Notes: generated from the sequence alone by a model not told the origin. A stretch of 64,000 bases of DNA from Deltaproteobacteria bacterium (GCA_019307135.1 JAFDKF010000028.1:3535-67534), one strand, 5' to 3'; positions 10,601 through 45,094 are shown, numbered from the stretch's first letter. Numbers and translations: made by a program.

Positions 10601-10766
10601 GTATACTTGTAAAAGGAATTCTTTACTGGATTCCCGCCTTCGCGGGAATGACGATTGGGTGCAAGTACCTGTCATTCCCGCGGAGGCGGGTACTGTTCTC
10701 AAGGCTTAAGCCGCAATCCAGTGAATAGTCGCAAAACATGATTTGCCCCAACTTTTTGAGAACTTA
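10601..10766. mobile_element. MITE-like palindromic element, family A, degenerate copy
   Basis: Core ggattcccgccttcgcgggaatgacg..gtcattcccgcggaggcggg, plus the right end ccagtgaatagtcgcaaaacatgatttgccccaactttttgagaacttac. A 24-nt insertion is present and the left end is decayed. Confidence 0.6.
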
Positions 10767-12524: not shown

Positions 12525-13594
12525 ACAATGGAGAGATAGCTATGGTCACCACTTCCACTCAAAAGCCACCTTCGGATGCTTCGATTCTGCTCATCCTGAT
12601 GGGATCTCTGGGGGATGTGGTGCGAGGGCTCTGTTTAGTGTCTCATATTAAGAATAATCTGCCACAGAGCAGGGTAACGTGGCTCATAGAGCCTAAATGG
12701 GCTGAACTGGTGGACTTTCATCCACAGATTGATAAAATGATTGTCTTTAACCGTCCCAGGGGTGTTCCAGCGGTATGGAATCTGTATAAGGATTTAGCTC
12801 AAGAACACTTTGATATTACCCTCGACCTTCAGCGTCACTTTAAGAGTGGCTTTTTCTCGCTGCTTTCCAGGGCAAAAAGACGGGTTGGTTTTAATCGACG
12901 AAATGCAAAGGAGTTTAATTGGCTCTTTAATAATGAACAAATTGATTACGTTAGCGACGAATTGCCTAAATTGCGTCATTATCTGAAGTTTACAGAATAC
13001 CTGGGGTTATCCGAACCAACTTTACTGGAATTCGGGTTTTCTTCGCTTGATTTGAAGGTTACTGTGCCGAGTATCGTCACTGAGATAAGCGATCCCTTTA
13101 TCGCTGTTGTGATGGGCTCCTCCTGGGAGTCAAAAGACTGGATATTTGAAGGGTATTGTGAATTGGTGAAAGATATTCTCTCTTCTGGAGAGAGGCAGGT
13201 TGTGCTCCTTGGCGATCATTCGAAGCGGACTTCTGCTGCCAGGCTCTTTGAAAAGATTGGCTCCTCAAGGCTGATCAATCTGGTTGGCAAGACATCTCTT
13301 CTTGAACTTGTCGCCGTACTCAAGGCGGCCGCAGCCGGTGTCGGCCCCGACTCCGGACCTGCTCATCTGGCGGCAGCGGTAGGGACTCCGTATGTATCGA
13401 TTTTTGGTCCAACATCCCCGAGACGAGTAGCACCCTATGGAAGTGAACACCTTGTGGTTCAGTCCGCAGTAAGCTGTGCTCCCTGTTATAAGAAGCGATG
13501 CCCTGGTCTTGACAGGCTCTGCATGCGCCTTGTGAGTGTTGAAGCGGTGGAGGAAAAACTTTCGGAAGCGCTTGCGATGCGTGGTGATAGATAG
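12521..13594 (+). CDS. ADP-heptose:LPS heptosyltransferase (GT9), second copy
   Basis: ILLILMGSLGDVVRGL, AVVMGSSWESKDW and GPDSGPAHLAAAVGTPYVSIFGPTSP. Start is GTG 12521 or ATG 12542. Confidence 0.8.
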   Translation: MNNGEIAMVTTSTQKPPSDASILLILMGSLGDVVRGLCLVSHIKNNLPQSRVTWLIEPKWAELVDFHPQIDKMIVFNRPRGVPAVWNLYKDLAQEHFDITLDLQRHFKSGFFSLLSRAKRRVGFNRRNAKEFNWLFNNEQIDYVSDELPKLRHYLKFTEYLGLSEPTLLEFGFSSLDLKVTVPSIVTEISDPFIAVVMGSSWESKDWIFEGYCELVKDILSSGERQVVLLGDHSKRTSAARLFEKIGSSRLINLVGKTSLLELVAVLKAAAAGVGPDSGPAHLAAAVGTPYVSIFGPTSPRRVAPYGSEHLVVQSAVSCAPCYKKRCPGLDRLCMRLVSVEAVEEKLSEALAMRGDR

Positions 13595-13625
13595 CCATAA
13601 CAACTTAGCAAATGAGGGTTCTTAT

Positions 13626-14657
13626 ATGAAGACAAAGACGCTAGCTGAATTGGCAGGGCATGTTGGTGGGCGGGTTTGTGGGGACGCAAGTTTGACAATT
13701 TCCTCTGCATCGACACTTGAGCGGGCAGGCGAGGGGAATATCAGCTTTCTTGCCAACCCCAAGTATGCCAAACTACTGAGAACTACCAAAGCCACGGCTG
13801 TGGTGGTGGGAGAGGAGCATGAATCCCTGGCTGCGCTACTAGTAGTAGATGATCCGTACTACGCGTTTACACAAATAGTTGTTCTATTGCACGGACACAG
13901 GGAACACAAAAAAACGGGAATCAGCAGCAAAGCTTCCATAGCCGAAACAGCCGTAGTGGGCAGGGATACTCACATCCATGATTTTGTGACTATTAGCGAT
14001 AGTGTTCGAATTGGCCACAGGTGTGTTCTTTATCCCGGGGTGTTTATCGGGCCGGATGTCGAGATAGGTGACGATTGTGTTCTTCACCCAAATGTGGTCA
14101 TTTATGAGCGGTGTGAGATTGGAAACAGGGTAATTATTCAAGCGAATGCAACAGTCGGAGAGGATGGGTTTGGATTTGCGACACATAAGGGTGAGCACCA
14201 CAAGATTCCACACATAGGCAGGACTCTCATTGAGGACGACGTGGAGATTGGGTCAGGATCTGCCATTGAGCGCGGAGCATTTGATGATACTGTGATAGGT
14301 GCTGGAAGTAAGCTCGGGGATTCGGTGGTGATAGGCCATGGGACAAGAGTCGGTCCGTATTGCCTGATTGTGGCCCAGGTGGGCATTGCGGGTTCCACAA
14401 CCCTGGGGCATCATTGTGTGGCCGGAGGACAGGTTGGTATTACCGGCCATATCAGAGTCGGAAACAGGGTTACTATTGCAGGTCAATCCGGGGTAATGGG
14501 CGACCTACCGGACGGTGCCGTGGTGTTCGGCACACCTGCCTTTGATGCAAAGAAAGCAAAGCGTGCATATGTAGTGCTCAAGTCCCTGCCTGACATGCAG
14601 AAGAGTTTCCGGGAGCTTGAAACTCGCGTCTCCAGTCTTGAAAAAACCGAGAAGTGA
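13626..14657 (+). CDS. lpxD: UDP-3-O-acylglucosamine N-acyltransferase, paralog outside the canonical cluster
   Basis: ORF 13536..14657 trimmed to ATG 13626 (MKTKTLAELAGHV). Has left-handed beta-helix hexapeptide repeats, GEDGFGFA, DDVEIG and VIGHG. Confidence 0.85.
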   Translation: MKTKTLAELAGHVGGRVCGDASLTISSASTLERAGEGNISFLANPKYAKLLRTTKATAVVVGEEHESLAALLVVDDPYYAFTQIVVLLHGHREHKKTGISSKASIAETAVVGRDTHIHDFVTISDSVRIGHRCVLYPGVFIGPDVEIGDDCVLHPNVVIYERCEIGNRVIIQANATVGEDGFGFATHKGEHHKIPHIGRTLIEDDVEIGSGSAIERGAFDDTVIGAGSKLGDSVVIGHGTRVGPYCLIVAQVGIAGSTTLGHHCVAGGQVGITGHIRVGNRVTIAGQSGVMGDLPDGAVVFGTPAFDAKKAKRAYVVLKSLPDMQKSFRELETRVSSLEKTEK

Positions 14658-14664
14658 TAGGAGG

Positions 14665-15474
14665 CTATTTTTTCACCTTACTTTTACGATGCTGGATATA
14701 TGCATCGCGAAGCGCCTCGTACGGATTAATGGCTGCCTTCTTGAGAGACTCGTAATCACCGATTTTGAAAGATTTCTCGTTTACGACCTCGTAGGCCTTG
14801 ATCCCCACGGCCGCTTCCATGGGTTCAACGTAAAAAACAGGATTCAAGAAGTAATCTCCGACCAAACCAACGGAGTCGCGCAGGGTGGAGGGGCCCAGAA
14901 AGGGCCACACAATGTAAAACCCGTTGCCGATTCCATAGACCCCAAGCGTCTGACCCAGGTCCTCCTCACTGGGATTCAGTTTGGGGTATTTTTTTGCCGG
15001 GTTTCCAAAGCCAAGCACGCCCACTGTGCTATTTAACAGGAAACGAACAGATTCGGCACCTGCCGCTTGCCATTTCCACTGAAGGATGCAACTAACCAAT
15101 CGGATCGGTGTGGTGAGGTTGGTGAAAAAATTTTTTACACCAGTCCTGACCGGGCTGGGAACTACCGCTCTGTATCCCCTGGCCACAGGCTTCAGAATCC
15201 AGAAGTAGAACTTGTCATTGAAGTGAAACATGCCCCGGTTCCAGAATGCCAGGGGGTCTGCCACCTGCACCTCATCTTCTTCAAATTCATCGTCAAAGAG
15301 ATCGAGTTCATCGTCAGAAAAAGCGTCATCAGAATCATCCTCAATGCCGGGGGCTGACGGAATCTGTTCCGCTTCGGCAGTTGTTATTTGCGAGTTCTGA
15401 TGAGCACACCCTGCCGAGAAAAAAGCGGAAACCAAAACAACCAGCAACAGATAGTTCAGTTGTTCTTTGGCCAT
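14665..15474 (-). CDS. mlaA: MlaA/VacJ outer-membrane lipoprotein
   Basis: DPLAFWNRGMFHFNDKFYFWILKPVARGYRAVVP..VKNFFTNLTTP is the VacJ signature. ATG 15474 gives the lipobox FFSAGC. Confidence 0.85.
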   Translation of the reverse strand: MAKEQLNYLLLVVLVSAFFSAGCAHQNSQITTAEAEQIPSAPGIEDDSDDAFSDDELDLFDDEFEEDEVQVADPLAFWNRGMFHFNDKFYFWILKPVARGYRAVVPSPVRTGVKNFFTNLTTPIRLVSCILQWKWQAAGAESVRFLLNSTVGVLGFGNPAKKYPKLNPSEEDLGQTLGVYGIGNGFYIVWPFLGPSTLRDSVGLVGDYFLNPVFYVEPMEAAVGIKAYEVVNEKSFKIGDYESLKKAAINPYEALRDAYIQHRKSKVKK

Positions 15475-15540
15475 ATTCTCAAAAAGTGGAGTTGTCAATA
15501 TTCACCACAGAGCACACGGAGACCGCAGATTAATGAATTT

Positions 15541-15734
15541 ATGGCATCCTTCATTTAGTAGTTTACACTCTGATCATGAGTTTTTTAGTAAATTTTTCAG
15601 TTTCTAAGCTGTCATTCCCGCGAAAGCGGGAATCCATAAAGGATACAACCACCGGATTCCCGCCTTCGCGGGAATGACGAATCAAACATACTCTAAAAAG
15701 TGTAAACTACTTTCGTCGAAATATGAAACATGCC
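15541..15734. repeat. family C shell (ATGGCATCCTTCATT..GTTTACAC inverted ends) enclosing a family A core
   Basis: Left end atggcatccttcatttagtagtttacac, right end agtgtaaactac..aaatatgaaacatgcc. The interior holds gtcattcccgcgaaagcgggaatcc and ggattcccgccttcgcgggaatgacg. Confidence 0.6.
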
Positions 15735-15778
15735 GAATTTATTATATTTTTTCTCTGCGCTCTCTGCGTCCTCTGTGG

Positions 15779-18289
15779 TTAATTATTTTTCTCCTCTTCC
15801 CCAAACGGCTTAAAAACGACTAACAGTTGTGGCAGCAGCGTCAGGTCGGCAATTAAGGCAATTAACATTGCCAATCCTGTCAGAAGGCCGAAATATATAC
15901 TCGGAATGAAATTGGACAAAACCAGGATTGAAAAACCGATGATGATCGTCACTGACGTATAGTACATGGCGTGGCCGATGGTTCCGTGGCAGCGATGAAC
16001 CGTCTTAATATAATTCCGATCGACTTTGAACTCATGTTTGAATCTGTGGATATAGTGAATCGTGTCATCGACAGCAATCCCTACACTAATTGCCGCGATT
16101 GTAATTGTCATCATGTCAAGGGGAATATTCAGCCAGCCCATGACACCAAGGACTACACCAATGGGAAGCATATTGGGAAAAATGGCGATGAGCGCTATTT
16201 TCAAAGACTTGAACAGGATCAGAAACATGCTCATCAACGCTAGTACGACTACTCCCAGAGTCAGGACCTGTGAACTGAACAGGCTCTGGAGCATATTGTT
16301 GTATAACACCAGCATCCCGGTTAAATGTGCATGCTCTTTCTTGATACCCAGTTTGCTGACCAGGTCATGTCGGATCTCTTTCAGCAACTTATCCCGCTTT
16401 AATGATTTTTCTGAATCCCTGACTCGGATTGAGAAACGGACCTCATCATTCTCCACGGACACATAAGGTTTTACCACCGTGCTTTTGAACTCGTCAGGTA
16501 TTTTGCTGTACAGCAGGGCCAGTGCAAAATTGTCTAACTCCTTGCCGTTGTTTAACTTTCTGCCGATCTTCATTATCGTTTCCAGTGACAGGACCTTGCC
16601 GGTTTCCGGCAGGCTGTCAAGATAATCATGGATTTTCTCAACCTGGGCCATCTTGTCAGAAGTAAACCAGTATTTCTCATCGTGTTGTGCTTCATCGAAT
16701 TCATCAAAGTCCTCAAATTCATCCTCATTTTGGGCGTCGGTTTCAGGTGCAACCTTTTGTGCTAATGCTTCGGGTTCATCCAATTCGATAATCACATCCA
16801 GGGGGGTGGTGCCACCCAGATTTTGATCAATAACTTTCATGCCCTGATAGATCTCGGTCGTATGTTTAAAGTAATCAATAAAACTGTTTTCAACCGCCAG
16901 CCTTGAGATCCCGATGGCACTGACAATAAAGGTAATACAACTTATTACCATTATCATGACGCCATGGGCTTCGGTGAATCTGGCTAAAAATGATGTCAAT
17001 GAGAAGTGTGAGTTCCGTCTGGCCTGTGGAGTTCCTTTTTTCATCAGCATTAACAGGGCAGGAAAGAGCAGGAATGTCATTACGAGAGAGAGGGTAATAC
17101 CGGCACTCATCATCCAGCCAAAGGTTATAACTGGCAGGATATCGCAGAGCAGCAGCGAACCAAACCCGGCGATAGTAGTCAGCGCGGCATACAGGCAGGG
17201 CCTCAGCATCAAAGAGACGGCATCGAGGATAAGCTTCCGGTGCTCAGCTTCAGGGTTATTGAAATGGAGTTCGCGGTACCGCACGATCAGATGGATCGTA
17301 ATCGCCATGGTGATGATAAGCTGTAAGGATATAAAGTTAGAGGATATAACAGTGACCTCCCAGCCAAACAATCCCAGCAGCCCCATCATAGAAATTGCAG
17401 AAAAAGCACAGCAGAGGATGGGCAAAAAGATCCAGCGCATTTTTCTAAAAACAACGCTTAAGGCGACGACCAGGAGAAAAAAAACCCCGAGACCGAATGT
17501 CTTAAGGTCGTTTTTGATAAACCTGATCAGGTCGTCTGCGATCATGCTAATACCGCCCAGAAAAAGTTCGGCATCCTGACGGTAGTTGTCCATAATCGCA
17601 CGAATTGCAGCAATATCCTGATGCCGGGCTTTTTTCATCTTGTCCCGGTGTTTTTGAAATTGCACGGCAACTTTTTTGAATTCAGCGACCTCTGCCGCAG
17701 ACAGCCGGTTAGTGGCTTGTTTTTCCCGCAAATGGTTGCGACGGGCCAGTAGATCCTGATAGATCTCATCGATCGGGAATTTGATCTGGAGTGCTGTCGT
17801 CTTAAGATCGGGGCTGACCAGCAGGTTTTGGTAGAGGGGACTCTTGCTGAACTCGATCCTGGCCAGTTTTTTGTCAACCGTTGGCGATTCGAGAGTCGGG
17901 AGATTGCTGGCCAGTTCCTTGAGCGGCACAGGCGGGCTTTCCAGCAAAGGGACATCCAGTATTGAAACTACCGATGACACCCGTTCCACCTGCTTTAATT
18001 CGTCCCGCAGTCGGGTCAGGTTTGCCAGCACCTTATCTGAAAACAAATCGTTTTTGGGGACATAGGCCATCAATAAATAATCTTGTAGTCCATAGCGCGA
18101 ATTAATAAGCCGCGAGTAACGCAGGTCTATGTCATGCTCGAGAACCAGCGTTTCCGCTGATGCGTCAAGCTTGAAGTCCTTAGCCTTATAGCCGAGGAAA
18201 GAAACCACCGCCAGAAGACAGATAATGACGAGTCCCGGCCGCTCAAGGATGACCTTGTCGAAAAAACGTCTCGGCAGTGAATGAAGCAA
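15779..18289 (-). CDS. RND-superfamily MMPL/HpnN-like transporter (COG1033-type predicted exporter)
   Basis: 836 aa with two 6-TM bundles (approx aa 260-415 and 690-825), each preceded by a large soluble domain. This is the MMPL/SSD-type layout. Start is TTG. Confidence 0.8.
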   Translation of the reverse strand: MLHSLPRRFFDKVILERPGLVIICLLAVVSFLGYKAKDFKLDASAETLVLEHDIDLRYSRLINSRYGLQDYLLMAYVPKNDLFSDKVLANLTRLRDELKQVERVSSVVSILDVPLLESPPVPLKELASNLPTLESPTVDKKLARIEFSKSPLYQNLLVSPDLKTTALQIKFPIDEIYQDLLARRNHLREKQATNRLSAAEVAEFKKVAVQFQKHRDKMKKARHQDIAAIRAIMDNYRQDAELFLGGISMIADDLIRFIKNDLKTFGLGVFFLLVVALSVVFRKMRWIFLPILCCAFSAISMMGLLGLFGWEVTVISSNFISLQLIITMAITIHLIVRYRELHFNNPEAEHRKLILDAVSLMLRPCLYAALTTIAGFGSLLLCDILPVITFGWMMSAGITLSLVMTFLLFPALLMLMKKGTPQARRNSHFSLTSFLARFTEAHGVMIMVISCITFIVSAIGISRLAVENSFIDYFKHTTEIYQGMKVIDQNLGGTTPLDVIIELDEPEALAQKVAPETDAQNEDEFEDFDEFDEAQHDEKYWFTSDKMAQVEKIHDYLDSLPETGKVLSLETIMKIGRKLNNGKELDNFALALLYSKIPDEFKSTVVKPYVSVENDEVRFSIRVRDSEKSLKRDKLLKEIRHDLVSKLGIKKEHAHLTGMLVLYNNMLQSLFSSQVLTLGVVVLALMSMFLILFKSLKIALIAIFPNMLPIGVVLGVMGWLNIPLDMMTITIAAISVGIAVDDTIHYIHRFKHEFKVDRNYIKTVHRCHGTIGHAMYYTSVTIIIGFSILVLSNFIPSIYFGLLTGLAMLIALIADLTLLPQLLVVFKPFGEEEKNN

Positions 18290-18324
18290 GTCCCTGTATT
18301 TTCAATAGGTTGCAGAATTTCCGA

Positions 18325-18473
18325 GTAACTTCTCAAAAAGTCTGGGTAATAGCTACTGGATTCCCGCCTTCGCGGGAATGACGATTGGCTGCAAATGCCT
18401 GTCATTCCCGCGAAGGCGGGAATCCAGTGAATAGTCGCAAAACATGATTTGCCCCAACTTATTGAGAAGTTAC
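18325..18473. mobile_element. MITE-like palindromic element, family A, full 149-bp copy
   Basis: The terminal inverted repeat gtaacttctcaaaaagtctgggtaa / ..ccccaacttattgagaagttac flanks two GC hairpins (attcccgc-cttc-gcgggaat). Same length and layout as 38257-38405. Confidence 0.7.
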
Positions 18474-19070
18474 TTTTCCGAGACGTTTATTTTCCGGTTC
18501 TTCGAGTTTTTCCAGAAGGTCGTCAATAGTGCCGCTGCTAAGGACCTGGTTAAATTGCGACCGGTAGGTTGTGATAAGGCTGACACCCTCGATCTCTATA
18601 TCATAGATCTTCCAGTTATGTTTTGATTTATATAGCTTGTATAACATGGATATTTTGTTGTCTTTTGAGATGAGGTCGGTTGGGATGTGAATTTTTTTCT
18701 TGACCTGAACAGGCGCATTATAGACGATCTTTTCATCTGTATAATTATAACGGGTCAGTTTTTCGAGATATGACTCCTTCAAACGTTTGATAAAAAGCTC
18801 CTTAAATCTCTCCTTCTTCTCTTTGGCCAGGCCGGGCCAGTACTTTCTCCCCAAAGTCAGCTTAGCCATTAGGGAAAAATCAAAGATTGGCGTAACGATT
18901 TCGATGATTGCTTTTTTCTTTGCTTCTATTTCAAGTTCTTTTTTTTGCAAGACCGAAATCACGGCCTCGAGCTTGCTTCTTAATGTCTCCTCGGCAGCAC
19001 TTTTATCATCCGCTATGACCGTCTGGCTCAACATCAGCAAGCTCAAAACAGCATACAGCAGGCTTTTCAT
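18459..19070 (-). CDS. mlaC: MlaC/Ttg2D-family periplasmic lipid-binding protein
   Basis: Signal peptide MKSLLYAVLSLLMLSQTVIA, then FDFSLMAKLTLGRKYW, F..LFIKRLKESY and WKIYDIEIEGVSLITTYRSQF match the MlaC pattern. The last 7 codons and the stop lie in a repeat element. Confidence 0.75.
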   Translation of the reverse strand: MKSLLYAVLSLLMLSQTVIADDKSAAEETLRSKLEAVISVLQKKELEIEAKKKAIIEIVTPIFDFSLMAKLTLGRKYWPGLAKEKKERFKELFIKRLKESYLEKLTRYNYTDEKIVYNAPVQVKKKIHIPTDLISKDNKISMLYKLYKSKHNWKIYDIEIEGVSLITTYRSQFNQVLSSGTIDDLLEKLEEPENKRLGKVTSQ

Positions 19071-19200
19071 AATTCATTCCTTTTTTTGCATATTGCGTCT
19101 TGCTCATATGCATTCCAACGGGACTCATTTTATGTCCCTCTGTACCAAGAACCCTGCTAATGTCATAAATAGAGAGGTTTTCTTTGCGCAATGCGATGAC

Positions 19201-19248
19201 GGGTTCACGGTTCAGAGGTTCAGGGTTCACCGAAAATCTGAACCGTTG
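19201..19248. repeat. GTTCAC-word hairpin fragment
   Basis: gggttcacggttcagaggttcagggttcaccgaaaatctgaaccg. Confidence 0.5.
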
Positions 19249-19274
19249 ATTCGCAAGTTCTGACTGGAGAAGGC

Positions 19275-19340
19275 ATGAGAATAGATCGATTTGAGGATAT
19301 TGAGGCATGGCAGTTGGCCCGGGAGCTAACTCGCAAGGTC
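19275..19340 (+). pseudogene. remnant of a four-helix-bundle (23S rRNA intervening-sequence type) protein gene
   Basis: ATG 19275 reads MRIDRFEDIEAWQLARELTRKV, the conserved N-terminus of that family. The frame then runs straight into a GTTCAC-word repeat and stops. Confidence 0.5.
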
Positions 19341-19581
19341 GTAACCATTCACGGGTTCAATGGTTCAGGGGTTCAGGGTTCACCGAACAAATGTTGAGAG
19401 CTGACCCCTTGTCACCGCCCGGTTGATGATTGAAAAAACAATCGACAATCGACAACCCCTGGCCCAGACCTGATTTACGGAGGCAGCAGCCTCTTCCAAT
19501 CAAGTCGCACCAGGGCGGGCGTAAATCGACAATCAAAAAAGGTAACCCTGAACGGTGAACTCTGAACCTGTGAACGCCTAC
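19341..19581. repeat. GTTCAC-family palindromic element (241 bp)
   Basis: Ends are gtaaccattcacgggttca.. and ..ctgaacctgtgaacgcctac. The interior holds caatcgacaatcgacaacc and aatcgacaatc words. Confidence 0.65.
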
Positions 19582-19668
19582 TTGATAGTTAAGCAAGGGG
19601 ATAAGTAGGCTTAAATTAGGAGAAAGGGTTGCTGCTTCGCATTCGGCAAGACCTGGATCGGCATCTTT

Positions 19669-20439
19669 TCAGTATCCAATATTTTCATGGTTCCCTTTCT
19701 TCCAGAAGATGTTTTTTTCAATAATCGCTCCATTGCTCATTGTATAGCATGAGGTGGAGCCCGAGATTCTTTTTGAAAGATAGGTGGAGTATTTATCGCT
19801 GAATTTAATTCTTTCGTCTAAAGCCTCTGAATAGACACCGGCCAGCCCGAGTATAAGCTCGCACACTTCCCTCACCGCATATTCATCCCCGACATGGGCG
19901 CAGATATAGTCGCAGAGATGGTTTTCTCTGACATAGCGCTCAAAAAGGGGGCTCGCCGTTCTCCTGACAAGGAACCTGAGGCCGCAGGCAGCGGCGATAG
20001 AAAGATCAAGCGCGTCATCAAAGACAAAGGCTATCCGGTCACGGGTAATCTCATATATACTTTCGATATGGTTGACGGCTTCGATCTTATTGGGCAGGCT
20101 GTAATACACAAACTGGAAGTGTTCTCTTCTGGAAAGCTCAAACGCAGACTTATTGTTCTGGCCCGTGATAATGCCAAACAAAGGAAGTTCATCGGACTTC
20201 AGCCAGTGGCCAAACCTGAGCAGGTTGGTCCCCATTGAATCAGGCTCAGCATATGCGCTGTGCGTGCCCTCCCCTTTTACGCCGGCATTAAACACACCGT
20301 CCCAGTCAAAAAGGTATACTTTTATGTTTTTAAGCTTTTCCGCTATCTGCGAAGCAGGTGTGATGAACTCGCCCCCGGCTTCTGAAAAAACCTTTTCAAC
20401 ACTTTCTGAAGATGTATTCACCTGGGTTGAGCGGTTCAA
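19669..20439 (-). CDS. HAD-superfamily phosphatase, divergent KdsC (Kdo-8-P phosphatase)-like
   Basis: Collinear with KdsC blocks: LFDWDGV (DxDGV), IITGQ, PNK, FDDALD, AVREVCELILGLAG. About 45 aa N-terminal and 50 aa C-terminal extensions. Start is TTG 20439 or GTG 20421. Confidence 0.6.
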   Translation of the reverse strand: MNRSTQVNTSSESVEKVFSEAGGEFITPASQIAEKLKNIKVYLFDWDGVFNAGVKGEGTHSAYAEPDSMGTNLLRFGHWLKSDELPLFGIITGQNNKSAFELSRREHFQFVYYSLPNKIEAVNHIESIYEITRDRIAFVFDDALDLSIAAACGLRFLVRRTASPLFERYVRENHLCDYICAHVGDEYAVREVCELILGLAGVYSEALDERIKFSDKYSTYLSKRISGSTSCYTMSNGAIIEKNIFWKKGNHENIGY

Positions 20440-20634: not shown

Positions 20635-21660
20635 TCAAGAGAGCAGGTCCTGTTTTATAAGGTCCTGGACATCTATCATTCCGATGAATTCATCATTGTC
20701 CAGAACAATGATATTATCGACCTGCCTGTCCTTGAAAATCTTTACAGCTTGGTACAGGAGCTCGTCTCCGCTAACCGTGAGCGGGGGATTATATGAAAAA
20801 TCGGACATCTTTTTGTTCATAAAGGATTCTGGATCGCGATTGAGCTGTCTTCTTAAGTCGCCGTCAGTAAAAATACCGGTAACCCTGCCGCTGTTATCAA
20901 GCACGGCAACAGCCCCCAGCCTGGAATCGGTCATCTGGACCATTGCGTCGAACACGGTATCCTTCAAGCGAACCGCGGGTTTTGCTTCTCTTATGATTTC
21001 TTTCACGCGCGTGGTCATGAGCTGCGTGTGTATCTCAAACTCCCTGATCCCGACCGTTGTGAAACTGTTTTCAGTAAGCTGTTTCATGACCTTCCAGGGA
21101 ACCGTGCAGGTATGGACGCCAATGTTTATGGCGTTCCGGACATGCTCCGGGTGCCGGACGGATGAAAACATGATTTTTGTATCATAGCCGTAAAATTCAA
21201 CAGCCTCCACGCACTGCTCTATCAAGGCAAGGGCGTCATGTCCTTCATCCTGAAGGCGTCCGACCAGGGGACAGACATAATCAGCGCCAGCGGCCATTGC
21301 CATATATGCCTGCTGGAGTGTGTACACCAGATGGACATTCACTCTCATCCCTTCATCTTTCATTTGCTTGCACGCCCTGACGCCTTCCAGGGAAACAGGG
21401 GTTTTAAAAACCGTTTTTCCCTTATCCAGCCCCAGTCCTATAAGACGGTGAGCCTCCTTCACGATCTCTTCACTGGTATCGCCCAGCGCTTCAATCTGCA
21501 GTACAGGAACTATCTTGGACAGTCTTACGATTGTGCCGTCAACATCGGTAATGCCGTGACGATGCATGAAAGTAGGTGTTGTTGTCAGGCCGGCCAGAAA
21601 ACCGAGTTTAAACGCCTCTTCAATCTCCTTTATGTCTGCTGAATCTAAATAAAGTTCCAT
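20635..21660 (-). CDS. fructose-6-phosphate aldolase/transaldolase (TalC/FSA)-type TIM barrel fused to a KdsD-type CBS pair
   Basis: aa 1-215 read MELYLDSADIKEI..GLTTTPT..TVFKTPVS (Schiff-base Lys position)..GADYVCPLVGR, collinear with E. coli FsaA. aa 225-341 form two CBS motifs containing GIFTDGDLRR, the KdsD/GutQ C-terminal signature. Confidence 0.8.
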   Translation of the reverse strand: MELYLDSADIKEIEEAFKLGFLAGLTTTPTFMHRHGITDVDGTIVRLSKIVPVLQIEALGDTSEEIVKEAHRLIGLGLDKGKTVFKTPVSLEGVRACKQMKDEGMRVNVHLVYTLQQAYMAMAAGADYVCPLVGRLQDEGHDALALIEQCVEAVEFYGYDTKIMFSSVRHPEHVRNAINIGVHTCTVPWKVMKQLTENSFTTVGIREFEIHTQLMTTRVKEIIREAKPAVRLKDTVFDAMVQMTDSRLGAVAVLDNSGRVTGIFTDGDLRRQLNRDPESFMNKKMSDFSYNPPLTVSGDELLYQAVKIFKDRQVDNIIVLDNDEFIGMIDVQDLIKQDLLS

Positions 21661-22573: not shown

Positions 22574-22714
22574 GTAACCGTTCACGGGTTCAGAGGTTCA
22601 GTTAAAAGAATAGAGGTCAGAGATCAGAGGTCGGAGGTCTGGCTTCTGATCTCTGACTTCTGAACTCTGATCTCTGACTTCTGAACGGTGAACTCTGAAC
22701 CTGTGAACGCCTAC
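22574..22714. repeat. GTTCAC-family palindromic element (141 bp), nested arms
   Basis: Outer arms gtaaccgttcacgggttcagaggttcag / ctgaacggtgaactctgaacctgtgaacgcctac. Inner arms gaggtcagagatcagaggtcggaggtc / gatctctgacttctgaactctgatctctgacttc. The element starts 6 nt from the kdsA ATG. Confidence 0.75.
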
Positions 22715-25032: not shown

Positions 25033-25237
25033 GTAGGCGTTCACAGGTTCAGAGTTCACCGTTTCAGCCGTCGTAGCCTGCCGACTTCGCCATAGTAGCC
25101 ATAGGCTACGACGGCTGAAACGGCTACTATGGCGAAGTCGGCTCAGGGTTATCTTTCTTTCGTTAACCTTGCTTGTAGGACGGTTCAGATTTCGGTGAAC
25201 CCTGAACCTCTGAACCATTGAACCAATGAACGCTTAC
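25033..25237. repeat. GTTCAC-family palindromic element (205 bp) with interleaved-stem core
   Basis: Ends gtaggcgttcacaggttcagagttcaccg / cggtgaaccctgaacctctgaaccattgaaccaatgaacgcttac. For the core see the finding at 25064-25142. Confidence 0.7.
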
Positions 25238-25936: not shown

Positions 25937-26073
25937 TCAATAGGTTCTAAAATTTCTGAGTAACTTCTCAAAAAGTTCGGGTATGTTTATTATGAGCCAG
26001 TTTGCTGGATGCCCGCTTTCGCGGGCATGACGGGGGATTTATTACATTCGTCATTCCTGCGAAGGCGGGAATC
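25937..26073. mobile_element. MITE-like element family A, right end truncated
   Basis: ttcaataggttctaaaatttctgagtaacttctcaaaaagttcgggta..ggatgcccgctttcgcgggcatgacg..gtcattcctgcgaaggcgggaatc. Its left flank is shared with the 18.3 kb copy. Confidence 0.6.
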
Positions 26074-26685
26074 ACGTCTAACCATATCACGGATGGACTT
26101 TATTGCCCTGCCAGGCAGCCATAGATCGCTCAGGGTCTTGCCCAGGGCAAGCCTTCTCCTCTCCTTATTGGTCATGCTCTCAGGGTTAAGCTTTCCTTTT
26201 ACCTTGAGAAAACCCATTCGGTCAATGCTCGCCAGGAAATCCTTGAGCTTCCCTGGCCGTGGGATGTAAAGGCATGATGCGAAGTCTACGAGGTACGGAA
26301 GCCCACTATCGTCTATGCCGTAATTTCTCCTGTTCCTCAGGTCCAGATGCAGAACCCCCCTCTGGTGCATCTGCTCAATAATCTTTGAGAGTTTCTCAAA
26401 GTAGGCGCCATCTGGCTTCTTTGTTGTCGCTCTGAGGTTTTCGCCCCCCATATAGGATGTGACGAGAGTGTACCTATCTGGCCTGCCGGTGAGCTTTGGT
26501 ATACCGGATATGTCCTTTAGCCTTGAGTAGATAAAAGCCTCCCAGGAGACGAGCAGTATCCCCATCATGCGCACAGGCCAGGCTTTGTTCCTGTAAGTCT
26601 TTTCCACAAGGCATCTGCCATCAAGACGCATCAATGAAACATCAGGCCCGTAGATACGTTTCTTTTTAAAGACCATCTGTGTCAT
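25990..26685 (-). CDS. small RIO/Kdo-kinase-like protein kinase fold
   Basis: VEKTY..(Lys), catalytic loop VLHLDLRNRRN and DFASC (DFG-like). The C-terminal ~20 codons and the stop lie in a MITE-like repeat. Confidence 0.55.
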   Translation of the reverse strand: MTQMVFKKKRIYGPDVSLMRLDGRCLVEKTYRNKAWPVRMMGILLVSWEAFIYSRLKDISGIPKLTGRPDRYTLVTSYMGGENLRATTKKPDGAYFEKLSKIIEQMHQRGVLHLDLRNRRNYGIDDSGLPYLVDFASCLYIPRPGKLKDFLASIDRMGFLKVKGKLNPESMTNKERRRLALGKTLSDLWLPGRAIKSIRDMVRRDSRLRRNDECNKSPVMPAKAGIQQTGS

Positions 26686-28323: not shown

Positions 28324-28427
28324 GTAACCGTTCACAGGTTCACCGTTCACCGTTCAGATTTTCGGTGAACCCTGAACCCTGAACCCTAAACCCTGAACCC
28401 TGAACCTCTGAACCCGTGAACGGTTAC
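28324..28427. repeat. GTTCAC-family palindromic element, compact 104-bp copy
   Basis: Perfect 12-nt termini gtaaccgttcac / gtgaacggttac. The arms are made of ggttcac and gaaccct heptamers. Confidence 0.8.
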
Positions 28428-38256: not shown

Positions 38257-38405
38257 GTAACTTCTCAATAAGTCCGGGTAATCGCTGCTGGATTCCCGCC
38301 TTCGCGGGAATGACGATTGGGTGTAAGTGGCTGTCATTCCCGCGAAAGCGGGAATCCAGTAAATAGTCGTGAAATCTGATTTACCCGAACTTATTGAGAA
38401 GTTAC
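38257..38405. mobile_element. MITE-like palindromic element, family A, full 149-bp copy
   Basis: A 25-nt terminal inverted repeat, gtaacttctcaataagtccgggtaa / ttacccgaacttattgagaagttac, flanks the two attcccgc..gcgggaat hairpins. Confidence 0.75.
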
Positions 38406-38415
38406 ACTTTGGGTG

Positions 38416-39102
38416 TTAGTCTATCGCGTGACCATAGTATAGGTCCACAAATTTTGTGATTCGATTCAGTTCTGCTTCAAGGTTTGCGCGATAGACCTCT
38501 TTTGTCTCTGCATCGACTTTGCACGGGACTGAAATAGGTGTGCCATAGATAACTCTACCTTCAGTAAACGGACAGGGAAGCATAAACCGATCCCAACTGG
38601 CAAAGATCTTTATCCTCTCTGCGCTGTAGCTGAGAGGTACAATAGGATATCCTGTCTTTTGAGCCAGAGTTATAACGCCGGGCTGAACCCTGAACCGGGG
38701 GCCCCTTGGACCATCCGGAACCACAACTCCGGGGCAAATCTCTTCCTTAAGGGCCTTGATTAACCTTGCCAGAGCTCGAACGCCGTGCCGTGAGGTGGAA
38801 CCCCGGATTGTCTTATGGCCTTGACGCTTCAGTATTTGCGCAATGATCTCCCCGTCCTTGGATTTGCTGACGAGGATGGCGGCACCCAACCGCTTGTAAA
38901 GGTAGCTAAGCATAAGTATTCTCGAATGCCAAAAGGCAAAGATAAATCTCCCTGACTCGATCTCCGCCCTGGCCTTATCAAAGTCAATAGTCCGAATGCG
39001 GATCGTGCTGCAAATCAGGTCGGTCAAACCTTTCCCGAGCCAGCCGACCAGCCACCACTTCAACGTATTCCGTATGGGGTTAATTGAGTTTGTTGGGTTC
39101 AT
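38416..39102 (-). CDS. DUF374-family (lysophospholipid acyltransferase-like) protein
   Basis: FAFWHSRILMLSY..LVSKSKDGEIIAQILKRQGHKTIRGSTSRHG..VVPDGPRGPRF fits the DUF374 pattern. ATG 39102 chosen because upstream codons (NPTNSMNPTNPTNSTNP) are repeat-encoded. Confidence 0.7.
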   Translation of the reverse strand: MNPTNSINPIRNTLKWWLVGWLGKGLTDLICSTIRIRTIDFDKARAEIESGRFIFAFWHSRILMLSYLYKRLGAAILVSKSKDGEIIAQILKRQGHKTIRGSTSRHGVRALARLIKALKEEICPGVVVPDGPRGPRFRVQPGVITLAQKTGYPIVPLSYSAERIKIFASWDRFMLPCPFTEGRVIYGTPISVPCKVDAETKEVYRANLEAELNRITKFVDLYYGHAID

Positions 39103-39197
39103 TGGGTTTGTTGAGTTTGTCGGGTTTGTCGGGTTCATTGAGTTTGTCGGGTTATAACTCAACAAACACAAGAAACCATGTAAACTCAACAAACACG
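39077..39197. repeat. family D hairpin (GGGTTYATTGAG/GGGTTTGTYG words, loop, AACTCAACAAACAC words), copy 1
   Basis: The central ggttataactcaacaaacacaagaaac is shared with copy 2. Contains the lpxB stop and the DUF374 ATG. Confidence 0.7.
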
Positions 39198-41634: not shown

Positions 41635-42441
41635 CTATTCTACACCTATAATCACAATCCCGCTTCGATCAGCCAGTGCAACCATCTCTTCCCTGCCAAA
41701 GACCACCGTCTTGCCTGCCTCAACGGCCAGGACCGACGCTCCAACATCACGCATGGTCTCAATGGTTTTGACCGCGACGGCCGGCATGTCGAATCGCATA
41801 TCCTGGTTGGGCTTACTTGCCTTCACAACGACCGTTTTTTCCTTTCCAAGCCCCCCTCCTCGCGTTATGGTGGCATCAGTACCATCAATAGCCTCAACCG
41901 CCATCACTGACCTGTCCCGAACCACCACAGTCTGGCCAATATCCAACCTTCCAATCTCCTTGACTATACGCCATCCGAAATGTACATCGGCCATCTCGGA
42001 CCTGGTCGGCTTGCGCCGTGTCCAGCATCCTCTTTTTGCCAGGAGTTCGGGCACCAAGAAAGTAGAAGGGTGAATGGTTATCCCCTCTTTTTCCAACTCG
42101 CCGGCAAAGGCCCGCAGGAGTCCATCGTCCTGCGTATGATCCATAGTGGCCAGTACCTTCAGAGCCCTCAGGTCCGGCCTCACCCCTGAAAACATCTTGG
42201 TCTTGGTGATGGCCCCAGCCAATACCGCATCACTGACTCCATTTTCCTTAAAAAATGCAATAAGTCGCTTCAATTGGCCGATCTTTACCCACCTTATCGC
42301 CTCTACAAGGTTTTCCAGTCGGGGATCGGTTTCCCCAACATGGGCTATTGCGTAAACCTTCAACCCCCTTTCCCTGGCCGCCTTTGAAAAAATGCCGGGG
42401 AACTGCCCGCTCCCGGCTATGAGTCCGATTTTTGGGTTCAT
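41635..42441 (-). CDS. lpxI: UDP-2,3-diacylglucosamine pyrophosphatase LpxI (DUF1009)
   Basis: ORF trimmed to ATG 42441. KIGLIAGSGQFP, EIGRLDIGQTVVV and AVEAIDGTDATI are collinear with Caulobacter LpxI as I recall it. Confidence 0.8.
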   Translation of the reverse strand: MNPKIGLIAGSGQFPGIFSKAARERGLKVYAIAHVGETDPRLENLVEAIRWVKIGQLKRLIAFFKENGVSDAVLAGAITKTKMFSGVRPDLRALKVLATMDHTQDDGLLRAFAGELEKEGITIHPSTFLVPELLAKRGCWTRRKPTRSEMADVHFGWRIVKEIGRLDIGQTVVVRDRSVMAVEAIDGTDATITRGGGLGKEKTVVVKASKPNQDMRFDMPAVAVKTIETMRDVGASVLAVEAGKTVVFGREEMVALADRSGIVIIGVE

Positions 42442-42535
42442 TGAGTTCATTGAGTTCATTGAGTTTATTGGGTTTATTGGGTTTATTGGGTCATAACTCG
42501 ACAAACTCAAGAAACTCAACCAACACAATAAACCC
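42434..42535. repeat. family D hairpin, copy 2
   Basis: (ttcattgag)x3 (tttattggg)x3 tcataactcgacaaactcaagaaactcaacc. Contains three in-frame ATGs, the last being the lpxI start. Confidence 0.7.
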
Positions 42536-44071: not shown

Positions 44072-45094
44072 CTATGACTTTTCCATCTTCTCAATTCGTT
44101 TCTCCAATTCTCTTAGCTTTTTTTTCATATCCGGAAGCTTGGGGATAATGCTGGACGCTTTTAACCAAAGCCGATGGGGCATTCCCGGGAAACCGGATAC
44201 AATCTGGCCGTCCTGTATCGACTTGGCAATCCCTGCCTGGGGGCCGATTGTGACCCCGTTGCCAATGGTGACATGTTCTGCCACTCCTGCCTGCCCAGCG
44301 AGTATCGCATGATTTCCAATCATTACACTGCCTGATATGCCTACCTGTGCAACAAGGACTGTATCCTCGCCCACCACTACATTGTGAGCGATGTGAACCA
44401 GATTATCTGTCTTGACGCCCCGCTTGATCCACGTCCTCCCAAAGGTCGCCCTGTCGATTGCATTGCAAGCGCCGATCTCCACATCATCATCGATGCGCAC
44501 GGTACCAACCTGTGGAATCCTATAATACCGATCACCATCAGATGCGAAGCCAAAACCATCGCTCCCGATCACAGAACCTGCATGGATCATTACTCTGCTG
44601 CCGATTTCGCATCGTTCCAGAATCGATACATTGGGATACACAACGACATCATCCCCTATCGCCACGCCATTGGCAACCACAACCCCGGGATATAAAGTGA
44701 CGCGGTCACCCAGAGTCACATAGTCTCCAATAAACACACACGGATACACGGAAACATCAATGCCACATTTGAAATCCTTGCCCACATGGGCGTCCTGACT
44801 GATCCCAATCACCGGGCGGCAAACCGGATGAAACAAGGTAGATACCTTGGCCAGGGCCAAAGAGGGATTTTCAACACGCACAAGGATCTTTTTGGATTCG
44901 CAGACCCCGTGCGAGACGATCACAGCAGCTGCCCGGGTCTCGTCAACGCGCTTCTTGTAGCTGGCAGATGCAGCAAAGGTGATATCATCCGGACCGGCAT
45001 TTTCAAACGGAGCAACACCTCTGATGATGAAGTCACCATCACCTACAACCTCACCCCGGACCAGTTCGGCAATCTTATGTACAGGCAGTTCCAT
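44072..45094 (-). CDS. lpxD: UDP-3-O-acylglucosamine N-acyltransferase (canonical skp-lpxD-fabZ-lpxA position)
   Basis: Hexapeptide repeats, GSDGFGFA, DDVEIGA and HIAHNVVVG. Confidence 0.9.
   Translation of the reverse strand: MELPVHKIAELVRGEVVGDGDFIIRGVAPFENAGPDDITFAASASYKKRVDETRAAAVIVSHGVCESKKILVRVENPSLALAKVSTLFHPVCRPVIGISQDAHVGKDFKCGIDVSVYPCVFIGDYVTLGDRVTLYPGVVVANGVAIGDDVVVYPNVSILERCEIGSRVMIHAGSVIGSDGFGFASDGDRYYRIPQVGTVRIDDDVEIGACNAIDRATFGRTWIKRGVKTDNLVHIAHNVVVGEDTVLVAQVGISGSVMIGNHAILAGQAGVAEHVTIGNGVTIGPQAGIAKSIQDGQIVSGFPGMPHRLWLKASSIIPKLPDMKKKLRELEKRIEKMEKS

Follow-up and report, generated by a model that had tools for sequence, protein, structure and literature searches.

A recurrent mlaC-RND-mlaA gene triad as a candidate proton-driven, Mla-like lipid shuttle

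The triad and its products

We analyzed a 64-kb stretch of Desulfobacterales DNA (JAFDKF010000028.1, 3535-67534), referred to below as the window, in which three genes at positions 14665-19070 encode an MlaC-like protein, a transporter of the resistance-nodulation-division (RND) superfamily and an MlaA-like outer-membrane lipoprotein. A preliminary description of this DNA had reported the three genes as consecutive and co-oriented, with no MlaFEDB genes nearby, and had suggested an RND-based variant of the Mla lipid-trafficking system. All three open reading frames (ORFs) were indeed found at these positions on the minus strand, in the order mlaC-like, RND and mlaA-like (C-R-A). The coordinates of the genes and of the features discussed below are listed in Table 1. 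In the canonical Mla system, MlaA and MlaC work with the inner-membrane ABC complex MlaFEDB. The reported absence of these genes was borne out for the window: no MCE (MlaD) or MlaE gene was found in its 64 kb, and its sole small ABC system is LolCD-like. The module resembles the canonical systems of E. coli, Acinetobacter and Pseudomonas in having MlaA- and MlaC-family proteins with the expected export signals. It differs from them in having no MCE ring, MlaE permease, MlaF ATPase or MlaB STAS protein, and its energy would come from the proton gradient, not from ATP.

Table 1. Genes and features of the triad region (positions in the window)
Feature	Position	Strand	Remarks
mlaC-like, first gene of the module	19070..18459	minus	203 aa, Pfam MlaC PF05494
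RND, MmpL/HAE3/HpnN/NPC1 lipid-transporter class	18289..15779	minus	836 aa, Pfam MMPL PF03176
mlaA-like outer-membrane lipoprotein	15498..14665	minus	277 aa, Pfam MlaA PF04333
Long alpha-helical hairpin in RND periplasmic domain 1	17585..17767	minus	Residues 175-235; helices 175-192 and 198-235 in the AlphaFold2 model
Disordered acidic-aromatic RND loop, start of periplasmic domain 2	16682..16774	minus	Residues 506-536, ETDAQNEDEFEDFDEFDEAQHDE
Asp741 codon, TM10, candidate proton-relay residue	16067..16069	minus	Motif G-I-A-V-D-D-T-I-H-Y
Acidic-aromatic stretch, MlaA N-terminal tether	15271..15345	minus	Residues 52-76, IEDDSDDAFSDDELDLFDDEFEEDE
Palindromic element copy 1, mlaC/RND spacer	18358..18425		Two inverted 25-mers GTCATTCCCGCGAAGGCGGGAATCC
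Palindromic element copy 2, RND/mlaA spacer	15611..15678		Same element
Non-coding gap upstream of mlaC, presumed promoter region	19071..19668		~600 bp, three GTGAACCCTGAACCYCTGAACC-type repeats

The MlaC-like protein matched PF05494 at 138.6 bits (E=2.3e-40). It has a Sec signal peptide (..VIA/DD) and a calculated isoelectric point (pI) of ~9.5. MlaC/Ttg2D relatives in the PDB matched it at E=1e-11 to 1e-7. Against the NCBIfam models it scored 72 bits for HpnM (TIGR03481, cutoff 160) and 48 bits for MlaC (cutoff 195). As both scores were under the cutoffs, the protein is neither an HpnM nor an MlaC equivalog. Its relatives scored 65-129 bits against the HpnM model, all of them also under the cutoff.

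The MlaA-like protein matched PF04333 at 240.5 bits over residues 80-273. Its annotated start codon is TTG, with an alternative ATG at 15474, and the lipobox (..FSAG-C31) places the lipid anchor on Cys31. With 107 bits against the NCBIfam MlaA equivalog (cutoff 375), it is a family member, not an equivalog. The tether between the lipid anchor and the MlaA domain is unusually long (~48 aa) and bears the acidic-aromatic stretch described below, whereas in the MlaA chains of the PDB, which matched at E=6e-26, the conserved domain begins at chain residue 10-14.

The RND protein matched Pfam MMPL at 109 bits. Its top NCBIfam match was HAE3 (TIGR00921) with 167 bits (cutoff 352), followed by HpnN (TIGR03480) with 117 bits (cutoff 752), MMPL/actII with 114 bits and NF052374 with 94 bits (cutoff 1100); the BstA model gave 18 bits (cutoff 1400). 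The family is large, comprising 4141 clusters at 50% identity (E<1e-30). The nearest relatives among the matches listed shared 75-91% identity and were all from metagenome-assembled genomes (MAGs) of Desulfobacterales. No RND-MlaC fusion protein was seen among the homologues listed.

We aligned 42 diverse members of the family (31-89% identity) and used this alignment for structure prediction. The AlphaFold2 model, with a pLDDT score of 85 and a predicted template modeling score of 0.81, has 12 transmembrane (TM) helices and two periplasmic domains. The latter lie between TM1 and TM2 and between TM7 and TM8, as in MmpL/HAE3-class proteins. The second periplasmic domain opens with a disordered loop (pLDDT <50). 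In a Foldseek search, the top matches of the model were MmpL4/5 (TM-score 0.74-0.79), followed by NPC1-type proteins, HpnN (~0.65) and MmpL3, all with probability 1.0; NCR1 and NPC1L1 were also among the matches. Sequence identity was just 12-14% in every case. The best structural matches (MmpL3, MmpL4/5 with MmpS and AcpM, BstA and NPC1; TM-score 0.6-0.79) all belong to the RNDs for lipids or siderophores; each has 12 TM helices and two periplasmic domains, and accessory or carrier proteins act with several of them. Besides the low identity, the window RND differs from them in the helical hairpin of its periplasmic domain 1 and in its partners, which are not MmpS but MlaC and MlaA.

By sequence, HpnN of the PDB matched the RND protein at E=5e-8 and over one TM bundle only, the C-terminal bundle of the RND aligning with the N-terminal bundle of HpnN (5khn). 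In this alignment, Asp741, which is conserved in at least 90% of the 42 family members, stands opposite D344 in the TM4 motif GLGVD(344)FSIQY of HpnN. D344 is reportedly essential in HpnN (Kumar and colleagues, 2017). Judged from the alignment, Asp741 is a plausible proton-relay residue. The term HpnN-like, which the preliminary description had applied to this protein, is right at the superfamily level and fails as an assignment to HpnN. We rejected that assignment on the model scores and the taxonomic distribution of the family. The protein is an MmpL/HAE3-class RND, not an HpnN orthologue.

Distribution of the triad among phyla

One genome per species was scanned with the 42-member alignment, which gave 80 loci. 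Their ORFs were searched by jackhmmer with the three window proteins, and all 1241 ORFs (82 sequences) were clustered. Only the MlaC-like (40 loci) and MlaA-like (30 loci) families recurred as co-oriented neighbors of the RND gene. The mlaC gene was directly upstream of the RND gene in 37 of the 80 loci and downstream in three more, and mlaA adjoined it in 30/80. The next-largest neighbor cluster, a generic sensor-kinase family, was present in 12 loci. Three gene orders were observed: C-R-A in 16 loci, A-C-R in 12 and R-C in three. When only loci with adequate flanks and an RND identity of at least 54% were considered, the full triad was found in 18 of 28, and mlaC-RND in five more.

The carriers of the triad include Desulfobacterales, Phycisphaerae, Pirellulales, Sedimentisphaerales, Nitrospirota, SAR324, Lambdaproteobacteria, Elusimicrobia and Lentisphaerae, as well as the anammox Planctomycetota lineages Brocadiaceae and Scalindua (loci L028 and L032). 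In Campylobacterota, it was found in Malaciobacter canalis (L069) and in a Sulfurimonadaceae MAG (L039). Synteny, on which the idea of a functional unit depends, is thus kept across many phyla, and because of this conservation the adjacency of the three genes is far beyond chance. In 12 loci the mlaC stop overlaps the RND start by 4 nt. The window does not have this overlap; a 169-nt spacer with an inserted hairpin is found instead.

The module also seems to move. Between the window and its closest relative, CP070769.1, the high nucleotide identity (~91%) is confined to the three genes; the flanks are unrelated. In CP070769.1 the triad is surrounded by proS, relA, a second RND of the sterol-sensing-domain type and a sensor kinase, with no lipopolysaccharide (LPS) cluster. 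In a neighbor-joining tree of the RND proteins, the clusters follow gene order, not taxonomy, which points to transfer of the whole module in one piece. The second RND of CP070769.1 (5988-8160, plus strand) is shorter, with 724 aa and matches to both MMPL and the sterol-sensing domain, and lies two genes upstream of the triad.

Other relatives carry parts of the module. In several close relatives with RND identities of 65-87%, namely L025 (12511-13500), L006, L008, L009 and L041, the mlaC-RND pair has no mlaA downstream, so the linkage to mlaA has been lost repeatedly. Stand-alone RNDs with 46-51% identity were found in cultured Psychromonas (L051), Thalassomonas (L074), Marinobacter (L077), Exilibacterium (L056) and Desulfogranum (L076). 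An acidic, aromatic-rich periplasmic loop is still present in those of L051, L074, L076 and L077.

RND genes in the mla locus and earlier reports

In the Pseudomonadota MAG of locus L048, the genes mgtE, rapZ, rpoN, lptB, lptA, lptC, kdsC, kdsD and yrbG are followed divergently by RND, mlaC, murA, hisG, a DAHP synthase gene, hisD, petABC and a gene of the glutathione S-transferase family at the position of sspA. Only 82 nt separate RND from mlaC. This order is that of the canonical mlaFEDCB-ibaG-murA locus known from E. coli K-12 and from the PA4448-PA4462 region of P. aeruginosa. The RND gene occupies the slot that is usual for mlaF, mlaE and mlaD (and mlaB). Two further gammaproteobacterial MAGs, like that of L048, have RND directly upstream of mlaC in a murA-hisG locus: in L050 and L054 the downstream order is RND-mlaC-(BolA/IbaG)-murA-hisG, as in the canonical locus. 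The upstream flank of L050 differs, and the L054 contig ends just before RND. We regard the gene order of L048 as the strongest single piece of evidence for the RND as a putative inner-membrane partner of MlaC.

We also searched the surroundings of the RND genes for an ABC engine. No MlaD or MlaE homologue was detected by jackhmmer among the 1241 ORFs, which cover the window and 10 kb around the RND gene in 81 related loci. The E. coli MlaD and MlaE queries had been confirmed by PDB matches of 397 and 543 bits. The absence of MlaFEDB cannot be extended from the window to the whole genome. Among cultured Desulfobacteraceae, Desulfococcus oleovorans Hxd3 is the one covered by a published Mla census (PMC10665443, Supplementary Data 1). 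It has a single MlaA (ABW68084) adjoining a single MlaC (ABW68083), apart from its MlaD/E/F-like genes and with no MlaB. Because MlaD/E/F-like genes exist elsewhere in Hxd3, the RND may complement rather than replace the ABC engine. The same census places the MlaA and MlaC of Desulfovibrio, Desulfomicrobium, Desulfocapsa and Pelobacter inside the mlaEFD cluster (PMC10665443).

An operon of the same composition is known from C. jejuni, where mlaA (Cj1371), mlaC (Cj1372) and the RND gene (Cj1373) are adjacent, mlaC and RND are translationally coupled and MlaEFD is encoded elsewhere (bioRxiv 10.64898/2026.08.28.747810, August 2026). CjMlaC binds phospholipids as well as lysophospholipids, its action does not depend on the E. 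coli Mla system, and the authors propose RND-driven anterograde transport through an RND-MlaC-MlaA shuttle (same preprint). Of the C. jejuni RND and MlaC, CjMlaC alone was studied experimentally. A search of the PDB with the Malaciobacter MlaC for a solved C. jejuni MlaC gave no close match. The C. jejuni operon and the window share the same three gene families, adjacent and co-oriented, and the coupling of mlaC to RND recurs in the 12 loci with the 4-nt overlap. L069 and L039 (RND identity 48% and 54%) share the A-C-R order and the mlaC/RND overlap with C. jejuni, and the likeness of its RND to that of the window was judged through these two Campylobacterota homologues only. The window differs in its C-R-A order, in the palindromic repeats of its spacers and in its Desulfobacterales host.

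Together with a proposal on hopanoid export discussed below, the RND-MlaC-MlaA shuttle has already been put forward in two preprints as a hypothesis. A full-text literature search returned no other paper that ties MlaC and MlaA to an MMPL/RND protein. Judged from this literature, four points are new: the spread over many phyla, the joint mobility of the three genes, the RND gene upstream of mlaC in the canonical gammaproteobacterial locus (in L048 at the place of mlaFED) and the motif common to RND and MlaA. The value of the window lies mainly in a well-documented new member and in these comparative observations.

An acidic-aromatic stretch in RND and MlaA

The disordered loop of the RND protein and the tether of the MlaA-like protein, which contains DDAFSDDELDLFDDEFEEDE, both bear a stretch of the "DEFDEF" type. 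Strict regular expressions were too narrow for the MlaA tethers. We used a composition criterion with a background control instead: a 20-residue segment with at least eight D/E, at least two F/W/Y and at most one K/R. Such a segment was present in 70 of 84 family RNDs (83%), always in the same loop, and in 22 of 31 RND-linked MlaAs (71%), always in the N-terminal tether. Comparatively, it was found in one of 44 MlaC proteins and in 3% (30/1078) of the other ORFs of the loci. Two loci from distant phyla may serve as examples: L042 has DDDFSEFDEFEDE in RND and DDDFSDFDDEFGEE in MlaA, and L016 has DDEFDEFDEFDELDE in RND and ETFADDEFDLLEDELDE in MlaA. Most of the MlaC partners are basic (calculated pI 8.9-10.2). 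The RND loop is a candidate MlaC-recruiting motif. A permutation test of motif co-variation gave p ~0.01 without phylogenetic correction, and we did not rely on it.

A putative lipid shuttle and its alternatives

We suggest, with a probability of roughly 60%, that the three gene products make up a single lipid shuttle whose proton-driven inner-membrane engine is the RND. The RND would reside in the inner membrane, be driven by the proton gradient and shift a membrane lipid from the inner membrane's outer leaflet to its own periplasmic domains or back. These domains would hand the lipid to MlaC, a soluble basic carrier, or receive it from MlaC, which would carry it to or from the outer-membrane lipoprotein MlaA. 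MlaC may be recruited at the donor and the acceptor end alike by one short linear motif, the acidic-aromatic stretch of the RND loop and of the MlaA tether. In this arrangement the RND would do the job of the ATP-driven MlaFEDB in the canonical system. The RND as partner of MlaC and MlaA, as the preliminary description had it, is strongly supported on comparative grounds by the synteny, the movement as a unit, the translational coupling, the position in the mla locus and the motif; the physical partnership itself, its energy coupling, its cargo and its direction are what we infer from them. The RND-based variant of Mla proposed in that description gains comparative support here; the idea had already been published as a hypothesis.

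The cargo is most likely a glycerophospholipid or lysophospholipid. As to direction, we slightly favor outward transport, from the inner to the outer membrane. This leaning was adopted because, to our knowledge, every characterized bacterial RND of this fold (MmpL3/4/5, HpnN and BstA) is an exporter.

Several points weigh against the shuttle as proposed. All of its support is comparative, drawn from genes, conservation, fold and motif. Of the more distant RNDs, which are mostly gammaproteobacterial and have 46-52% identity, 20 of 25 stand alone. With neither mlaC nor mlaA close by in these loci, the partnership is, as far as gene linkage goes, not an obligatory one. Co-transcription in the window is unproven, as the 169- and 280-nt spacers hold very stable hairpins. 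Given the MlaD/E/F-like genes of Hxd3, the partner of MlaC and MlaA could be an ABC engine, in place of the RND or besides it. Some triads have no motif or an acidic MlaC; the similarity of the RND and MlaA motifs is only weakly higher within a genome than between genomes (32.5 versus 30.3), and the motif could be a mere common compositional habit. As to direction, the known role of MlaA, the mlaFED slot of L048 and the precedent of transfer from NPC2 to NPC1 fit inward transport equally well.

The most probable alternative keeps the same tripartite system and turns it inward, the RND being a replacement for MlaFEDB in retrograde transport, powered by the proton motive force (PMF). The position of RND in the mlaFED(B) slot of L048 and directly upstream of mlaC in L050 and L054 would suit such a role. 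So would the strong match of the MlaA domain to the canonical lipoprotein (240 bits), since the MlaA-OmpC/F architecture of E. coli serves extraction from the outer leaflet. NPC1-type RNDs, which the fold search returned with NCR1 and NPC1L1, receive sterol that a soluble carrier brings and deliver it into a membrane. However, the bacterial RNDs of this fold named above export their substrates, although BstA among them is remote from the window RND (18 bits). Moreover, C. jejuni and D. oleovorans keep MlaFED besides the RND, which would make a second retrograde engine redundant, and the C. jejuni authors favor anterograde transport (bioRxiv 10.64898/2026.08.28.747810). We consider the inward version the less likely of the two.

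Much less probable is that the module exports hopanoids, or another polycyclic or isoprenoid lipid, as an HpnN-HpnM-HpnS system. The HpnM model outscores the MlaC model of NCBIfam for the MlaC-like protein (72 versus 48 bits), the RND has HpnN among its relatives in both structure and sequence, and the triad is carried by anammox Planctomycetota (L028 and L032), which are known hopanoid producers. HpnM (MlaC-like) and HpnS (MlaA-like) have been proposed to act with HpnN in hopanoid export, in a module described for Alphaproteobacteria and Gammaproteobacteria only, the latter including the former Betaproteobacteria (PMC12324291, July 2025). The architecture is the same as here, with an MmpL/HpnN-class RND, an MlaC-family and an MlaA-family protein encoded together and an analogy drawn to MlaFEDB-MlaC-MlaA. 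SHC and HpnN-like proteins are common in Desulfobacterota, but Campylobacterota, in which the triad occurs (L039, L069 and C. jejuni), are reported to have no SHC (PMC12324291). The window proteins are far under the cutoffs of HpnN (117 versus 752) and HpnM (72 versus 160) and thus differ from the HpnN-HpnM-HpnS proteins (structures 5khn and 6wu0), and the PDB match to HpnN covers one TM bundle only. Moreover, no hpn or shc gene lies in the window, no such family recurs among the neighbors in 81 loci, and the MlaC of C. jejuni binds phospholipids. The RND is thus not part of an hpn cluster, a possibility that the preliminary description had raised. Given the scores under the cutoffs, the lack of linked hpn or shc genes and the presence of the family in Campylobacterota, a hopanoid cargo is unlikely.

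It is equally improbable that MlaC and MlaA work only with an unlinked ABC/MCE complex of the MlaFED type, as the separate MlaD/E/F-like genes of Hxd3, the MlaEFD encoded elsewhere in C. jejuni, the E. coli mlaA gene, which is likewise unlinked from mlaFEDCB, and the Kdo and lipid A genes adjoining the window triad might suggest, with the RND being an unrelated operon passenger that exports, for example, another amphiphile or an LPS-related lipid: the RND gene stays with mlaC across more than 10 phyla and with 4-nt overlaps, lies upstream of mlaC at the usual mlaFED site of a canonical locus and shares a rare motif with MlaA, and the LPS context is not conserved.

Returning to the RND-driven shuttle, a broader version can be put forward only tentatively, at somewhat less than even odds. 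In this version, the RND family would be a widespread PMF-driven partner of MlaC that complements MlaFEDB or, as gene order in some Gammaproteobacteria suggests, fully replaces it, and both ends of the shuttle would recruit a basic MlaC through the "DEFDEF" motif. Phospholipid traffic between the membranes and the direction of Mla are long-open questions that have been studied almost only in Proteobacteria. With an RND acting on MlaC and MlaA, lipid traffic would have a second source of power that differs in mechanism. On the present data, the module is a mobile three-gene unit of many phyla, sulfate reducers among its carriers, and extends beyond Campylobacter and hopanoid producers. If the broader version is true, a bidirectional or alternative shuttle for phospholipids, outside the E. 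coli paradigm, operates in many diderm phyla. The candidate docking motif makes the hand-over between RND, MlaC and MlaA directly testable.

Intergenic elements and neighboring genes

The genes of the triad are not tightly packed in the window, with 169 nt between mlaC and RND and 280 nt between RND and mlaA. Each spacer carries an inserted palindromic repeat that CP070769.1 does not have, and the spacers are longer than those of CP070769.1 by ~155 nt and ~184 nt, respectively. The predicted RNA hairpins are very stable, with -62 kcal/mol (z=-12) for copy 1 and -55 kcal/mol (z=-9.6) for copy 2. A sigma-70 promoter and terminator consensus scan of positions 14400-19800 gave nothing above the shuffled expectation, and the sigma-70 scan revealed no convincing minus-strand site for a promoter of the module. 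An Rfam scan of the whole window gave no matches.

The palindromic element resembles repetitive extragenic palindromes (REP) or miniature inverted-repeat transposable elements (MITE). Its inverted 25-mer arms, GTCATTCCCGCGAAGGCGGGAATCC, are separated by 18 nt and gave nine matches in the window against zero expected. Apart from the triad spacers, it is found at 38290-38357, at 26007-26074 in a degenerate form and at 10628-10652 as a single arm. It is also present in L071 (5026-5125 and 18930-19054), and the exact 25-mer occurs four times in a contig of Oceanicoccus, a gammaproteobacterium. A second intergenic repeat family, GTGAACCCTGAACCYCTGAACC, had seven matches in the window against zero expected. 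Three copies are located in the gap upstream of mlaC (19209-19230, 19362-19383 and 19555-19576) and four elsewhere (22688-22709, 25038-25059, 25195-25216 and 28393-28414). Read-through of such repeats probably accounts for the odd NPTNPTNSTNPMNP N-termini of two longest-ORF calls (38416-39192 and 41635-42528).

The triad forms the end of a large supercluster of LPS and outer-membrane genes. A convergent lpxD lies on one flank. On the other flank, the same strand carries a kdsC-like gene, a gene for a fusion of a fructose-6-phosphate aldolase/transaldolase (FSA/TAL) domain with CBS domains, kdsA, kdsB, waaA, lpxK, lptF, lptG, msbA, lpxB, lpxI, a second lpxD, skp, bamA and lolCD. The preliminary description was right in placing the triad at the tail of this supercluster, but a functional link does not follow from it, as the triad stands in unrelated contexts in relatives. 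We read no function into the position because it is not conserved, and rejected the module as a functional part of the LPS supercluster on the same ground.

In the FSA/TAL-CBS fusion (20635-21660, minus strand, 341 aa), a KdsD/KpsF-like CBS pair is joined to a fructose-6-phosphate-aldolase/transaldolase domain (172 bits against TIGR00875). The fusion is encoded between kdsA and the kdsC-like gene, at the place expected for kdsD (SIS+CBS); the window showed no gene for a SIS domain. FSA is able to form arabinose-5-phosphate from glycolaldehyde and glyceraldehyde-3-phosphate. The fusion may represent a non-orthologous route to the precursor of 3-deoxy-D-manno-octulosonic acid (Kdo). With 256 aa, the neighboring KdsC-like phosphatase (19669-20439, minus strand) is longer than the KdsC model, which spans 187 residues. 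It scored 50 bits against a KdsC equivalog cutoff of 208 and had no Pfam match at the threshold used.

The two lpxD paralogues of the supercluster are located at 13536-14657 (plus strand) and 44072-45094 (minus strand). The former passes the LpxD models. As its longest-ORF start overlaps the preceding heptosyltransferase gene, its true start is probably an internal ATG.

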